From Escherichia coli (GTDB taxonomy: Bacteria > Pseudomonadota > Gammaproteobacteria > Enterobacterales > Enterobacteriaceae): a stretch of 64,000 nucleotides of DNA. Positions 8,202 to 52,847 of this stretch are shown here, piece by piece. The notes beneath the pieces were generated by a model. It was not told where the DNA came from. It did not search any database and saw only the letters and a list, made by a program, of their open reading frames with translations. The position numbers and the translations under genes are program-made. The stretch lies in assembly GCF_050920415.1 (NCBI RefSeq), contig NZ_CP169309.1; one strand, written 5' to 3'. Numbering within the stretch: the stretch's first letter is position 1; the number at the start of each line of letters is the position of its first letter.

Positions 8202-8236
8202 AAAAGCAAAACGCCGACCAATGGTCGGCGTTTTTA
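8202..8236. terminator. bidirectional rho-independent terminator between the TRAP operon and rplI
   Basis: Perfect 8-bp stem CGCCGACC/GGTCGGCG (8212-8219 and 8223-8230), flanked by an A-run at 8202-8211 and TTTTT at 8231-8235. Confidence 0.8.
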
Positions 8237-25808: not shown

Positions 25809-25840
25809 AAAAAAAAACCATCCAAATATGGATGGTTTTT
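25809..25840 (-). terminator. rho-independent terminator downstream of rlmB (bidirectional form)
   Basis: Stem CCATCCA/TGGATGG (25818-25824 and 25829-25835), with a 9-nt A-run on one side (25809-25817) and TTTTT on the other (25836-25840). Confidence 0.8.
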
Positions 25841-46381: not shown

Positions 46382-49300
46382 GTGCGCCTGATTATCACTT
46401 TTCTGATGGCCTGGTGCCTCAGTTGGGGGGCGTACGCCGCGACGGCCCCCGATAGTAAACAAATCACCCAGGAACTGGAGCAGGCAAAAGCGGCGAAACC
46501 CGCGCAGCCGGAAGTCGTAGAGGCACTCCAGTCCGCCTTAAATGCGCTTGAGGAACGAAAAGGTTCCCTTGAGCGCATCAAGCAATATCAAGAAGTCATT
46601 GATAATTACCCGAAACTTTCCGCTACTCTGCGCGCGCAATTAAACAACATGCGTGACGAGCCGCGCAGCGTATCGCCGGGAATGTCTACCGACGCGCTGA
46701 ATCAGGAAATTCTCCAGGTCAGCAGCCAGTTGCTGGATAAGAGCCGTCAGGCCCAGCAGGAACAGGAACGTGCCCGCGAGATTGCCGATTCGCTGAATCA
46801 ATTACCGCAACAGCAAACCGACGCTCGCCGTCAGTTGAATGAAATCGAGCGGCGGCTGGGAACACTTACCGGCAATACCCCGCTTAATCAGGCACAAAAT
46901 TTCGCGTTGCAATCTGACTCTGCACGACTGAAGGCGCTCGTTGATGAACTGGAATTGGCGCAGCTGTCTGCCAATAACCGCCAGGAATTAGCGCGTTTAC
47001 GCTCAGAGCTGGCGGAAAAAGAGAGCCAGCAGCTGGATGCATATTTGCAGGCCTTGCGTAATCAGTTGAACAGCCAACGTCAGCTTGAGGCGGAGCGGGC
47101 GCTGGAAAGCACCGAACTTCTGGCGGAAAACAGTGCCGATTTGCCGAAAGATATCGTCGCGCAATTCAAAATTAACCGCGAGCTGTCGGCGGCGTTGAAT
47201 CAACAGGCGCAGCGGATGGATCTCGTTGCCTCGCAACAGCGTCAGGCTGCCAGCCAGACGTTACAGGTCCGGCAGGCGTTGAATACGCTGCGTGAACAAT
47301 CACAATGGCTGGGATCGTCCAACCTACTCGGTGAAGCGTTGCGGGCGCAGGTGGCACGGCTGCCGGAAATGCCAAAACCACAACAGCTTGATACCGAAAT
47401 GGCGCAGTTGCGTGTGCAACGGTTACGTTATGAGGATCTGCTCAATAAACAGCCGCTGCTACGGCAAATCCATCAGGCAGACGGTCAGCCGCTGACCGCC
47501 GAGCAAAACCGTATTCTGGAAGCACAGCTACGCACTCAGCGTGAGTTGCTGAACTCATTGTTGCAGGGTGGTGACACGTTACTGCTGGAGCTGACCAAGT
47601 TGAAAGTCTCCAACGGGCAACTGGAAGATGCGCTGAAAGAAGTGAATGAAGCGACGCACCGCTACCTGTTCTGGACTTCTGACGTGCGCCCGATGACCAT
47701 CGCCTGGCCGCTGGAGATCGCTCAGGATCTGCGTCGTCTCATTTCGCTGGACACCTTCAGTCAGTTGGGCAAAGCCAGCGTAATGATGCTGACCAGCAAA
47801 GAGACGATTTTGCCGCTGTTTGGCGCGTTGATTCTGGTCGGTTGCAGTATTTACTCACGCCGCTATTTCACCCGTTTTCTTGAACGTTCGGCGGCGAAAG
47901 TCGGCAAAGTGACTCAGGATCACTTCTGGCTGACGTTGCGCACCCTTTTCTGGTCGATTCTCGTCGCATCACCGCTACCGGTGCTGTGGATGACGCTGGG
48001 TTACGGCTTGCGCGAGGCGTGGCCTTATCCGCTGGCGGTCGCAATTGGTGATGGCGTAACGGCCACCGTACCGCTGCTGTGGGTAGTGATGATTTGCGCC
48101 ACCTTTGCCCGTCCGAACGGCTTGTTTATCGCTCATTTCGGCTGGCCACGCGAACGGGTTTCCCGGGGGATGCGTTACTACCTGATGAGCATCGGGCTTA
48201 TTGTGCCGCTGATTATGGCGCTGATGATGTTCGATAACCTCGACGACCGTGAATTCTCCGGTTCGCTGGGACGGCTTTGTTTTATCCTCATTTGCGGTGC
48301 GCTGGCGGTGGTCACCCTCAGCCTGAAAAAGGCCGGCATTCCGTTGTATCTCAACAAAGAAGGCAGCGGCGACAACATTACCAACCATATGCTGTGGAAC
48401 ATGATGATTGGCGCGCCGTTGGTTGCCATTCTGGCGTCGGCGGTGGGTTATCTGGCAACGGCGCAGGCGCTGTTAGCGAGGCTTGAAACCTCGGTTGCCA
48501 TCTGGTTCCTGCTACTGGTGGTTTATCACGTTATCCGCCGCTGGATGCTGATCCAACGCCGCAGGCTGGCGTTTGACCGGGCGAAGCATCGCCGGGCAGA
48601 GATGTTAGCGCAGCGTGCGCGTGGCGAAGAGGAAGCGCATCATCACAGTAGCCCGGAAGGGGCAATTGAAGTCGATGAAAGTGAAGTCGATCTCGATGCC
48701 ATCAGTGCACAATCCTTGCGGCTGGTGCGCTCAATCCTGATGTTGATCGCCCTACTTTCAGTCATTGTGCTGTGGTCAGAAATCCATTCCGCTTTCGGCT
48801 TCCTCGAAAATATTTCGCTGTGGGATGTCACTTCCACGGTACAGGGCGTGGAAAGCCTGGAGCCGATTACCCTCGGTGCGGTGCTAATTGCCATTCTGGT
48901 GTTTATCATCACCACGCAGCTGGTGCGCAACCTGCCCGCGCTGCTGGAACTGGCGATTTTGCAGCACCTCGATTTAACGCCGGGTACCGGCTACGCCATC
49001 ACCACCATCACCAAATATCTATTGATGCTGATTGGCGGGCTGGTAGGTTTCTCGATGATTGGTATTGAGTGGTCGAAATTACAGTGGCTGGTCGCCGCGC
49101 TCGGTGTTGGTCTGGGCTTTGGTTTGCAGGAAATTTTCGCCAACTTTATCTCTGGCCTGATCATCCTGTTCGAAAAACCGATTCGCATTGGCGATACGGT
49201 GACGATCCGCGATCTCACCGGTAGTGTGACGAAAATTAACACCCGCGCCACCACCATCAGCGACTGGGACCGCAAAGAAATTATCGTGCCGAACAAGGCG

Positions 49301-49705
49301 TTTATTACCGAGCAGTTTATCAACTGGTCGCTCTCTGACTCGGTCACGCGCGTGGTGTTGACGATTCCGGCCCCTGCCGATGCCAACAGTGAAGAAGTGA
49401 CGGAAATCCTGCTCACCGCAGCGCGTCGCTGCTCGCTGGTGATCGACAACCCGGCGCCGGAAGTCTTCCTGGTGGATCTGCAGCAGGGGATTCAGATTTT
49501 CGAGCTGCGTATTTACGCCGCTGAGATGGGTCACCGTATGCCGCTACGCCATGAGATCCACCAGCTGATTCTGGCTGGCTTCCACGCCCACGGTATCGAT
49601 ATGCCATTCCCGCCCTTCCAGATGCGTCTGGAAAGCCTCAACGGTAAACAAACGGGGAGAACATTAACTTCTGCGGGCAAAGGTCGTCAGGCAGGAAGTT
49701 TGTAA
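46382..49705 (+). CDS. mscM: miniconductance mechanosensitive channel MscM (YjeP)
   Basis: 1107-aa product with signal peptide, long Gln-rich coiled-coil periplasmic region, multi-TM domain and MscS-like C-terminal domain; GTG start at 46382 with AAGGA RBS. Confidence 0.94.
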   Translation: MRLIITFLMAWCLSWGAYAATAPDSKQITQELEQAKAAKPAQPEVVEALQSALNALEERKGSLERIKQYQEVIDNYPKLSATLRAQLNNMRDEPRSVSPGMSTDALNQEILQVSSQLLDKSRQAQQEQERAREIADSLNQLPQQQTDARRQLNEIERRLGTLTGNTPLNQAQNFALQSDSARLKALVDELELAQLSANNRQELARLRSELAEKESQQLDAYLQALRNQLNSQRQLEAERALESTELLAENSADLPKDIVAQFKINRELSAALNQQAQRMDLVASQQRQAASQTLQVRQALNTLREQSQWLGSSNLLGEALRAQVARLPEMPKPQQLDTEMAQLRVQRLRYEDLLNKQPLLRQIHQADGQPLTAEQNRILEAQLRTQRELLNSLLQGGDTLLLELTKLKVSNGQLEDALKEVNEATHRYLFWTSDVRPMTIAWPLEIAQDLRRLISLDTFSQLGKASVMMLTSKETILPLFGALILVGCSIYSRRYFTRFLERSAAKVGKVTQDHFWLTLRTLFWSILVASPLPVLWMTLGYGLREAWPYPLAVAIGDGVTATVPLLWVVMICATFARPNGLFIAHFGWPRERVSRGMRYYLMSIGLIVPLIMALMMFDNLDDREFSGSLGRLCFILICGALAVVTLSLKKAGIPLYLNKEGSGDNITNHMLWNMMIGAPLVAILASAVGYLATAQALLARLETSVAIWFLLLVVYHVIRRWMLIQRRRLAFDRAKHRRAEMLAQRARGEEEAHHHSSPEGAIEVDESEVDLDAISAQSLRLVRSILMLIALLSVIVLWSEIHSAFGFLENISLWDVTSTVQGVESLEPITLGAVLIAILVFIITTQLVRNLPALLELAILQHLDLTPGTGYAITTITKYLLMLIGGLVGFSMIGIEWSKLQWLVAALGVGLGFGLQEIFANFISGLIILFEKPIRIGDTVTIRDLTGSVTKINTRATTISDWDRKEIIVPNKAFITEQFINWSLSDSVTRVVLTIPAPADANSEEVTEILLTAARRCSLVIDNPAPEVFLVDLQQGIQIFELRIYAAEMGHRMPLRHEIHQLILAGFHAHGIDMPFPPFQMRLESLNGKQTGRTLTSAGKGRQAGSL

Positions 49706-49735
49706 GGTCTTTGTGGCCGGATGAACCCATCCGGC

Positions 49736-50050
49736 TCACAAGCAAAACTGATAGCGCAGAAAAAACTGCCACAACCAGTAGCCGAAAATAGCCAGGGCGG
49801 TGGCGTACATAAACCAGCCGCGTTTTTTTCGCCACAAAGCGAACCAGAGAAAAGGGAAAAAGAGCGGTAACGTCATTATCACACCGACATCGCGAGTATC
49901 GTCATCTTCGAGATACATCAAAACATCACAGACGTTGTTAATCCCGCGTCCATCAATCATCCACTCTTTGTCCAGCGCGGAGGTAATGGTTATCCAGAGG
50001 AACGCCACAATGAACCAGATGCAGCACAAGACAAACATGCGCGCACTCAT
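49736..50050 (-). CDS. yjeO: inner-membrane protein YjeO
   Basis: 104-aa hydrophobic ORF MSARMFVLCCIWFIVAFLWITITSALDKEWMIDGRG... Confidence 0.88.
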   Translation of the reverse strand: MSARMFVLCCIWFIVAFLWITITSALDKEWMIDGRGINNVCDVLMYLEDDDTRDVGVIMTLPLFFPFLWFALWRKKRGWFMYATALAIFGYWLWQFFLRYQFCL

Positions 50051-50147
50051 GAGATAATCGGTCGCTTAATTTCGCTATAGCGCATACGAAATCCCGCTAA
50101 TTCCCTGTCATTGCGCCCTATCGTCAGGCAGACGATAGGGCATCGGG

Positions 50148-51650
50148 TTATTCCACCGCCCACTGCGGATTTTTTGCCACTCTGCTGCAATAGTTCTGGT
50201 AAATCGCCATCGCTAACAGCGAGAAGAAGACAGGGCCGCCAATCATCCACAATGTGCTGTCCCAGTCTCCGGCTTCAACCACAGGTTGAATGATGGTGAA
50301 GACGTTCGCAAATGTCACCACCAGTACGACAACCACTGTCGCAATCATTGCCGACATATGTGTTTTGAAAATCACAAACGGTCTGTCGAGATCCTGACGT
50401 GCTTTAAAGAACGGGAAAGCCAGTGCAAGGAACAGGTAAGGAAGCGTCATAGACACGTTCGCCATCAGCGTTAGCTTGTTAAAGAATGCCGATGCGGTGC
50501 CACCACCAAACGAAACCAGCAGGATGAAGACAGTAACCAACCCGCACTGCATCCACATGGCGATAGACGGCATGCCCATCGCATTCAGCCGCGTCATCGG
50601 TTCCGGCCACAACGCTTTCGGCGTCCCCTGGATGATAGCTTTCAACGGTGAATAGCAAAGCGTAAAGAACGCGCCAGTGTAAGCGAGGAACATCGAAAGC
50701 CCGGTAATACGCGCAAACCATACACCCAGCGACAATGACGCTTCAGGTGACAAATGCAGTGCGTTACCCAGCGTCAACCCGAGGCTCTTCATCAGCACAT
50801 AGGTAATATTGCCAAGGTTAACGGAACCATTACTTAATACCTGCTGCCAGTTTGTGCTGACGCCCCATAAAAATATTGCCAGCGAATAACCGATTGAAAT
50901 AACAATAGCGGCAAAAACAATACCTTTGGCAAAGTTCTTTTCTGGATTTTCCGTTTTATCGACCAGACCACCAACCGCTTCAATTCCGCCATAGGCAAAA
51001 ATAGCAAATACCACAAACGATAGCATTGCCAGACCGGACTGATAACCTGGATTCGGTGATGTCAGGAAATTAATATCCTGCGCGAAATGCCCACCATTTA
51101 ATAACAAAATAGTAATGCTTACTAACAGCAATACTAAATTAAGACACATTACTGCAATACCGCCCACCGCAGTAATACGGGCAATTTTATTAATCCCTTT
51201 TGAAGCAACGACGGTGACCAGAATCATCCATGCCACTGCCAGCAGACCAACCACCTGCGTAGGTTCCAGTCCGGCAATACGCCAGTGCTGGGTCATGTCG
51301 CTACCGTAGAGAAATGTTGAGAACGGTACCCAAACTTTCGCGGAGGTGCTCACCATCCAGATGATATAAGAGGAAAACCACATAAACGTACCAATGAAGG
51401 CAAAACGTGGTCCGACACTATTATTCATCCAGGAATAGATACCGCCTTCTTCTTTGCGATACGCAGCGCCCATTTCAGCCATCATTAAGGCGAATGGAAT
51501 AAAGAATAACAATGCAGAAAATATATAAAAGGGAATCGCACTATAACCCATTAAGTAATAAGCCGATGGGCTATTGGCAAATCCAAATACAGAAGTAAAG
51601 ATCATCAATATGAGCCCTATCAGACTCATCTTTTTTATCGTGTGAGGCAT
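50148..51650 (-). CDS. yjeM: APC-family amino-acid transporter YjeM
   Basis: 500-aa polytopic membrane protein starting MPHTIKKMSLIGLILMIFTSVFGF... at the ATG at 51650. Confidence 0.93.
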   Translation of the reverse strand: MPHTIKKMSLIGLILMIFTSVFGFANSPSAYYLMGYSAIPFYIFSALLFFIPFALMMAEMGAAYRKEEGGIYSWMNNSVGPRFAFIGTFMWFSSYIIWMVSTSAKVWVPFSTFLYGSDMTQHWRIAGLEPTQVVGLLAVAWMILVTVVASKGINKIARITAVGGIAVMCLNLVLLLVSITILLLNGGHFAQDINFLTSPNPGYQSGLAMLSFVVFAIFAYGGIEAVGGLVDKTENPEKNFAKGIVFAAIVISIGYSLAIFLWGVSTNWQQVLSNGSVNLGNITYVLMKSLGLTLGNALHLSPEASLSLGVWFARITGLSMFLAYTGAFFTLCYSPLKAIIQGTPKALWPEPMTRLNAMGMPSIAMWMQCGLVTVFILLVSFGGGTASAFFNKLTLMANVSMTLPYLFLALAFPFFKARQDLDRPFVIFKTHMSAMIATVVVVLVVTFANVFTIIQPVVEAGDWDSTLWMIGGPVFFSLLAMAIYQNYCSRVAKNPQWAVE

Positions 51651-51869
51651 GAAACCATCCTTCATTTCAGCGCGTGTCTAAAACGCGCCCACTGAACTGC
51701 ACTACCCTATCATTGAGTGGGCAGCGTAAAAACCAATACAGAATTGATACCTGGATGATATCAAATATCCAGTCTTAAATTGTGGCCTTTAGCGGAAAAA
51801 TGAAAACATATGCTACAGAATGGCGCTCATCACGCCATTCTTCGCGGTTAATTCAGTAATTTTTCAGAA

Positions 51870-52847
51870 TTATGCCCGGTCAACGCTAAAGGCGATGACT
51901 TCAGCCAGTGTCTCCGCACCCAGCGCCAACATCACCAGACGATCAACGCCTAATGCCACGCCGGAACAGTCAGGCATACCGACTTTCAAGGCTTCAATAA
52001 GATTCTCGTCAATGGGGTGCTGCGGCAAACCGCGCGCCGCGCGCTTACGGTTATCTTGTTCAAAACGTTGTTGCTGCTCACGGGCATCCGTCAATTCATG
52101 GAAACCATTCGCCAGCTCAATACCTTTATAATAAACCTCAAAGCGTTCAGCGACCCGATGATCTTCGGTACTGATTTGCGCCAGTGATGCCTGGCTGGCC
52201 GGAAAGTGGTACACAAAGGTCGGTTTTTCTTTGCCAATATTTGGCTCTACGCCAAAGGTAAACAGCAGTTGTAGCAGCGTGTCGCGGTCTTCTTCGGTAT
52301 CGGCAACGTTGCTCAAATCCAGTTTCGCTGCCACTTCCCGCAGTTGCGTTTTGTCGGCAGAGAGCGGGTCAATTTCCAGATAACGCAAGAAAGCTTGTTG
52401 ATAAGAAAGACTTTCTGCTGCCGGGCAGTCCAGCACCTGTTGCAAGAGATCGTCCACCTCGTTCATCAACCGGTACATATCATAGTGCGGTCGATACCAC
52501 TCAAGCATAGTGAACTCAGGGTTGTGATAACGCCCCATCTCTTCATTACGGAAGCTGCGGCACAGCTGGAATACCGGCCCACAACCGGCAACCAGCAGGC
52601 GTTTCATGTGGTATTCCGGGCTGGTCATTAACCAGAGATTCATCCCCTGCGAATGCCCGGGGCCAACGAAACGCGTCTCAAACGGGACCAAATGAATATC
52701 GGTTACCGTCGCCTGGCTCATACAAGGCGTCTCCACCTCCAGCACTCCACGATCGGCAAAGAAACGACGGATCTCCGCCATAATCGCCGCGCGTTTTAAT
52801 AAGTTAGGAATGGATGCGCTCGGCTGCCAGGATGCCGTTTCGCTCAT
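51870..52847 (-). CDS. epmA: EF-P lysine-34 lysyltransferase EpmA (PoxA)
   Basis: 325-aa class-II LysRS-like product starting [41 protein letters not shown]... at the ATG at 52847. Confidence 0.94.

Follow-up and report, generated by a model that had tools for sequence, protein, structure and literature searches.

The stem-loop located directly downstream of yjeM in Escherichia coli is probably an exonuclease barrier, which would act as the 3′-terminal protective stem-loop of the yjeM mRNA and would belong to the class of structures described by Dar and Sorek (2018). The hairpin was analyzed in a stretch of E. coli DNA of 64,000 nucleotides, and "the window" in the following text means this whole stretch, numbered from its first letter. 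The reading draws on the structure of the hairpin and its non-random strength, a 3′ end mapped in K-12, selection on the pairing of the stem, and positional analogues in other genera. From these observations we infer exonuclease stalling as the mechanism, as well as the candidate origins of the initial 3′ end.

Structure and strength of the hairpin

The plus strand of the window at 50115-50141 reads GCCCTATCGTC AGGCA GACGATAGGGC, an inverted repeat whose two arms match perfectly over 11 bp and enclose a 5-nt loop. The tail past the stem is GCAAUGACAG (also written GCAAUGACAGGGAAU) on the minus strand and AUCGGGUUAU on the plus strand, with a U/T run on neither side, and the first 8 nt after the stem contain a single U (GCAAUGAC in the window, GUAAAGAC in K-12). 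The sequence upstream of the stem, UAACCCGAU, contains no A-tract, and a scan with promoter and terminator consensus sequences called no terminator at the hairpin. A first-pass annotation of this DNA had described a perfect 11-bp stem with a 5-nt loop, situated downstream of yjeM and upstream of yjeO with both genes on the minus strand, and without a flanking U-run on either strand. The stem and loop were found as described and lie well above chance, the gene order matches the annotation of a 99.9%-identical RefSeq genome, and both tails are free of U-runs. Its statement that the element is not a canonical intrinsic terminator also holds, since there is no U-tract and the terminator scan made no call. 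The features of the locus are listed in Table 1.

Table 1. Position of the hairpin and the neighboring features in the window
Feature	Position	Strand	Description and basis
Core hairpin	50115..50141	(-)	11-bp perfect stem GCCCUAUCGUC / GACGAUAGGGC, loop UGCCU on yjeM-sense RNA
Extended stem	50114..50142	(-)	12th pair via U(50142).G(50114) wobble, on the yjeM-sense strand only
Predicted steady-state yjeM mRNA 3′ end	50106..50113, dominant near 50109	(-)	predicted for the window strain by homology transfer from the K-12 Term-seq peak
yjeM CDS	50148..51650	(-)	500 aa, glutamate/GABA-family transporter; RefSeq annotation of a 99.9%-identical genome
yjeM stop codon UAA	50150-50148	(-)	ORF listing
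yjeN remnant	50047..50106	(-)	deletion junctions near 50106/50105 and 50092/50091
yjeO CDS	49736..50050	(-)	104 aa, DUF2645 inner-membrane protein; gene reached by read-through transcripts
mscM 3′ end	49705	(+)	convergent to yjeM/yjeO; RefSeq annotation of a 99.9%-identical genome

A search of the 64 kb for perfect hairpins (stem ≥11 bp, loop ≤9 nt) yielded only three distinct examples, compared with 0.12 expected from dinucleotide shuffles. The RNA of the hairpin folds with -21.9 kcal/mol (z = -6.2), a value that was equaled by none of the 200 shuffled sequences, and the plus-strand RNA of the palindrome folds with -21.2 kcal/mol. When up to three mismatches were allowed, one match to the hairpin was obtained within the 64-kb window. 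The Rfam scan proposed in the first-pass annotation matched no family: with the Rfam 15 covariance models at E <= 10 over positions 48000-52500, no hit overlapped 50115-50141, and chance snoRNA-like matches were obtained elsewhere.

The other two perfect hairpins of the window, at 8208-8234 and 25813-25840, have 12-bp stems placed between an A-run and a T-run (AAAACGCCGACC...GGTCGGCGTTTT and AAAAACCATCCA...TGGATGGTTTTT, respectively). Judged by their sequence, they look like canonical bidirectional intrinsic terminators and, unlike the yjeM hairpin, have both tracts.

Gene neighborhood

Counted along the minus strand, the hairpin begins 7 nt beyond the initial base of the yjeM stop codon, and 64 nt lie between its end and the ATG of yjeO. 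The gene order in K-12 is yjeM-yjeN-yjeO, with the hairpin between the yjeM stop and the ATG of yjeN, which is placed 18 nt beyond the stem. In the window, yjeN was lost through a deletion that begins about 9 nt past the stem; compared with K-12, 253 nt and 12 nt are missing. The leftover open reading frame of yjeN comprises 12 codons (ATG at 50085-50083, TGA at 50049-50047) and keeps the ATGA overlap with the start of yjeO, by which translational coupling to yjeO may be preserved.

Other forms of the locus were found in related strains. E. whittamii (L006) lost yjeN via another junction than the window, while about 2400 E. coli genomes are missing both yjeN and yjeO and keep the first ~13 codons of yjeN. 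The hairpin was kept in all locus forms, i.e., through three different deletions of downstream genes, the junctions of which differ by lineage and stop 7-12 nt or more short of the stem.

A second hairpin without a U-tract is located at 49722-49751 (GUGAGCCGGAUG-GGUU-CAUCCGGCCAC on the minus strand). It extends over the yjeO stop, lies 17 nt after the stop of the convergent mscM, and is probably a 3′ stem-loop common to yjeO and mscM.

Over the 1.1 kb from 49600 to 50700, the window shares at least 99% identity with only one of 5425 complete E. coli genomes (strain MFDS1022581), and 95-99% with nearly all the others. Given this single match, the window therefore carries a rare haplotype at the yjeM locus.

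Mapped 3′ end and extent of the yjeM transcript

The orthologous hairpin in K-12 is located at NC_000913.3 4385348-4385374, or at 4385346-4385376 (13 bp) if A-U and U.G pairs are counted. Its stem is identical to that in the window and one base of the loop is different. A published Term-seq 3′ terminus assigned to yjeM, of the class "Primary", lies on the plus strand at 4385376-4385383 with the dominant position at 4385380 (PMC10687069), which is 6 nt past the 11-bp stem and 4 nt past the extended 13-bp stem. The R value of this terminus, defined as 1 minus the local read-through of 3′-end reads, or the proportion of these reads at the peak compared with the 67 nt that follow, was 0.974, with adjusted p values of 0, 2.7e-9, and 0 in the three replicates (PMC10687069). 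The terminus comes from a TRS re-analysis (PMC10687069) of the term-seq data of Dar and Sorek (PMC6061677) for strain BW25113, which is the only dataset in which the yjeM 3′ end was found, and yjeM is weakly expressed. The Term-seq check named in the first-pass annotation thus yielded a significant "Primary" terminus right after the stem, in the K-12 orthologue rather than the window strain.

Among the entries listed in the same table (PMC10687069), there was no plus-strand 3′ terminus between that of yjeM and the end of yjeO in K-12, and no 3′ end on the opposite strand at the hairpin. The yjeM 3′ end was not found among the entries listed in the supplements of Adams 2021 and the TERMITe paper (PMC12207403), or among those listed in the RNAtag-seq sheets. 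Likewise, yjeM was not found among the supplement entries of Dar and Sorek in PLoS Genetics 2018 (PMC5927463).

An assembled K-12 RNA-seq transcript covers yjeM-yjeN-yjeO (PMC4168707), and some transcription therefore reads through past the hairpin. According to RegulonDB, yjeM and yjeNO constitute separate operons (PMC4168707). Any promoter of yjeNO would have to sit in the 3′ end of yjeM or within the 52-nt spacer around the hairpin, where none was identified. The expression of yjeO increased 2.6-fold under sigmaE overexpression (PMC2731931).

The mapped end might itself be primary, if the hairpin ended transcription as an intrinsic terminator lacking a U-tract, perhaps with help from NusA/NusG or with Rho as a backup, which we consider unlikely. 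In stem length, loop size, and folding energy, the hairpin is indistinguishable from canonical intrinsic terminators, its stem equals theirs in strength, and the 3′ end 4-6 nt past the stem is near the usual intrinsic release point. However, the defining 7-8-nt U-tract and the upstream A-tract are absent, only one U is present in 8 nt, and the consensus scan made no call. For efficient intrinsic release, E. coli RNA polymerase needs a U-rich RNA:DNA hybrid. The assembled transcript that reads through into yjeN/yjeO (PMC4168707) also speaks against termination by the hairpin itself, although Dar and Sorek grant such structures possible direct roles in termination, with mixed or transition states (PMC6061677), and the abstract of a preprint reports that intrinsic and Rho termination co-operate at 3′ UTRs.

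The two strands of the palindrome fold almost equally well, and in genera without yjeN/yjeO the hairpin is situated between the convergent genes yjeM and mscM. The element could accordingly be imagined as a barrier or 3′ end for transcripts leaving mscM, antisense to yjeO, but such an opposite-strand role is highly improbable. The published 3′ end belongs to the yjeM strand, with no opposite-strand end among the entries listed, mscM has its own hairpin at 49722-49751 with the studied hairpin lying 410 nt further on, and the wobble pairs of the stem favor the yjeM-sense strand.

Two alleles with conserved pairing

The distribution of the hairpin in 5426 complete E. coli genomes was determined using an 80-nt query around the window hairpin, whose matches were designated type A, and a query around the alternative allele, whose matches were designated type B. 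Type A (GCCCUAUCGUC-N5-GACGAUAGGGC) was found in 2756 of the 5426 genomes and type B (GCAACUCAUCGUC-UCUCC-GGCGAUGAGUUGU) in 2670, a split of about 51%/49%. Together, they account for all 5425 complete genomes with the locus, as one O157:H7 strain, which carries a chimera of the two types, matched both queries. The conservation analysis suggested in the first-pass annotation consequently placed the hairpin in 5425/5425 locus-carrying genomes, as two alleles with compensatory changes, and the stem is intact in 5423 or more of them. The hairpin is single-copy, occurring at one place per genome in the 2756 genomes. Among other Escherichia species, E. albertii has type B and E. whittamii has type A, and both alleles are therefore old.

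Two strains depart from this pattern. E. coli O157:H7 TR01 (L087, 719-790) carries a chimera of types A and B that is joined at the common AUCGUCU and has its stem destroyed, and in E. coli BS-04 (L089, 735-790) a 5-nt deletion cuts the type B stem to 9 bp. Both could be real variants or assembly errors.

The two alleles share the inner core AUCGUC-N5-G(A/G)CGAU, and in each arm the five outermost positions differ through paired substitutions that keep the complementarity. When nine distinct Escherichia alleles were aligned, 99.1% of the cells were paired (standard pairs) and both sides had changed in 5 of 13 pairs. By comparison, a control structure slid by 1-3 columns gave 22-55% pairing and at most one pair with changes on both sides. 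Type A has U.G at columns 5/33, where type B has C-G, and type B has a U.G pair at columns 15/23; the G.U wobbles are possible on the yjeM-sense strand only. In five of seven alleles, the sense RNA is the more stable strand. The wobbles and the stability of the sense strand suggest, though weakly, that the functional strand is the yjeM transcript.

The alleles lie in a dimorphic patch of ~130 bp with sharp edges, which takes in the hairpin, the final ~12 codons of yjeM, and the 5′ end of yjeN, and spans ~50100-50190 of the window. Within this patch, the haplotypes are only 47-78% identical (L005 4290-4420 vs. L091 680-810), and the C-terminal tails of yjeM differ accordingly (...SRVAKNPQWAVE vs. 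...SRMANKPELALD), whereas the flanks are 93-100% identical. Since the hairpin is intact in spite of this divergence, it is the structure that was kept and not the sequence.

This pattern also bears on functions at the DNA level. A perfect 27-bp palindrome directly upstream of yjeN in K-12 could be the operator of a dimeric regulator of yjeN/yjeO, for which the response of yjeO to sigmaE overexpression (PMC2731931) might be cited, or a cruciform or recombination site at the edge of the variable yjeN-yjeO segment, whose genes are present or absent depending on the strain. Either function is scarcely plausible. The half-site sequence of a palindromic transcription-factor operator would be conserved, but here the outer five arm positions are replaced between the alleles with only the pairing kept, which a sequence-specific operator would not tolerate, and the G.U pairs of type B are A.C mismatches in a DNA palindrome. 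The protein binding site that the first-pass annotation had listed as one option is unsupported for the same reason, since the arms are replaced between alleles. As for recombination, the divergent patch begins about 50 nt inside yjeM, such that the hairpin is not at its boundary, the deletion junctions vary by lineage, and the element is single-copy per genome. A role as a recombination boundary or cassette site was therefore rejected, given the start of the patch inside yjeM and the differing junctions 7-12 nt or more beyond the stem. The paper on the boundaries of ampC amplicons, which was also considered in this connection, deals with breakpoints inside yjeM; it reports that they have no genomic site in common and says nothing of a hairpin or palindrome.

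The covariation represents only two or three evolutionary events, and template-switch "quasi-palindrome correction" could have produced it in the absence of selection. A palindrome that is a mutational by-product of this kind, with the Term-seq end as an incidental exonuclease stall and no selected function, would fit with covariation that amounts to a few events between two haplotypes, with the broken stem of L087 and the shortened stem of L089 as natural exceptions, and with the weak expression and non-essentiality of yjeM. Nevertheless, it is distinctly unlikely, considering that at least 5423 of 5425 genomes have an intact stem within a patch diverged to 47-78% identity, that the three independent downstream deletions each leave 7-12 nt or more next to the stem untouched, and that about 50 other species have hairpins of unrelated sequence at this position, as described below.

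Hairpins downstream of yjeM in other genera

Fifty other species of Enterobacteriaceae were collected via the YjeM protein. In these species, a stable hairpin (median -19 kcal/mol) starts at a median of 11 nt past the yjeM stop, and at least five U within the next 8 nt after the hairpin were found in only 3 of the 50. The sequences of the hairpins are unrelated from genus to genus. For example, that of Enterobacter is CCCCUCCC-N4-GGGAGGGG, while Citrobacter, Salmonella, and Kluyvera have palindromes after yjeM which, going by the REP consensus, we take to be REP-like. In genera without yjeN/yjeO, the hairpin is placed between the convergent yjeM and mscM. By contrast, many yjeM homologues of Firmicutes are followed by classical terminators with a hairpin and a U-run. 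The occurrence of U-less hairpins after yjeM in the 50 species thus makes them a conserved positional feature of the family.

Comparison with known systems

In the study of Dar and Sorek (2018; NAR 46:6797, PMC6061677), Rho-dependent E. coli transcripts were found to end precisely just 3′ of stable stem-loops without a U-tract, and these ends are made by PNPase and RNase II, which trim diffuse primary ends back to the structure (PMC6061677). The yjeM hairpin resembles this class in being a stable G+C-rich 3′ stem-loop with neither a U-rich tail nor an upstream A-tract, and in having a precise steady-state end a few nt past the stem, the latter in the K-12 orthologue only. The assignment is made from the stem, the absence of the tracts, and the mapped end; further traits of the class are a rise of read-through under bicyclomycin and an extension of the 3′ tails in pnp/rnb mutants. 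There are two differences. The mild downstream enrichment of C over G, which is a tendency of the class and not a strict requirement, is absent at yjeM, and in K-12 a translated gene begins 18 nt after the stem, so that the tail belongs to the interior of an operon and is not an untranslated 3′ UTR.

A comparison can also be made with intercistronic stabilizing elements, which cause differential decay within an operon. The malE-malF REP, reportedly described by Newbury et al. in 1987, is one such element, and the intercistronic stabilizing hairpin of the Rhodobacter puf operon is another. Intercistronic stabilizing hairpins have been described genome-wide (Dar & Sorek 2018, PLoS Genet; PMC5927463). 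The yjeM hairpin is like these hairpins and REPs in separating an upstream cistron from downstream cistrons that are weakly expressed, and in that the yjeM message ends at the hairpin, yet read-through transcripts exist. Its position is moreover that of the REP-like elements following yjeM in Citrobacter, Salmonella, and Kluyvera. Unlike REP/BIME elements, however, it occurs once per genome and does not fit any REP consensus, and its identity as a REP or mobile repeat was consequently rejected. Processing by RNase III was rejected as well, because a stem of 11-13 bp is too short for this enzyme.

Proposed mechanism

In the proposed mechanism for the protective stem-loop, RNA polymerase would copy yjeM together with the hairpin and, at least sometimes, continue onward into yjeN/yjeO in K-12, or into the yjeN remnant and yjeO in the window. 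PNPase and RNase II would then digest the RNA back in the 3′-to-5′ direction and stall a few nt 3′ of the G+C-rich stem of 11-13 bp, which would leave a discrete, stable yjeM transcript ending about 4-6 nt past the stem. The hairpin would in this way set the 3′ boundary of yjeM, stabilize the message, and make the abundance of yjeM independent of that of the genes downstream, which are poorly expressed. The primary 3′ end could stem from Rho termination inside yjeN/yjeO, from endonucleolytic cleavage of the polycistronic RNA, or from inefficient termination induced by the hairpin.

A rut-like bias of C over G was absent downstream of the hairpin: within the first 200 nt, the C/G ratio was 0.5-0.9 in K-12 as well as in the window, and only the allele without yjeN/yjeO had a downstream C/G above 1. 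The Rho step in particular is therefore unsupported. As regards the wider proposal of the first-pass annotation that the hairpin may be an RNA stability or processing element, the Term-seq end in K-12, the kept pairing, and the analogues in other genera all back it. A more specialized version, in which the hairpin is specifically recognized (e.g., by ProQ or another chaperone that binds 3′ ends) or is a processing determinant, and sets the expression ratio of yjeM to yjeN/yjeO, with types A and B as a balanced dimorphism of functional significance that comprises the C-terminal tail of yjeM and its 3′ structure, appears very unlikely.

Significance

The yjeM hairpin is an ordinary further example of a class that has been described genome-wide in E. 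coli, and its 3′ end in K-12 was already contained in a published table, so that the importance of the finding extends little beyond annotation. In terms of annotation, yjeM gains a defined 3′ boundary, with a UTR of about 39-42 nt ending just past the hairpin, and the mapped boundary supports the division into yjeM and yjeNO units made in RegulonDB. The compensatory A and B alleles offer a convenient natural test case for selection on structure and not on sequence. Finally, yjeM provides a clean example of how U-less stem-loops, besides intrinsic terminators, define the 3′ ends of E. coli mRNAs.
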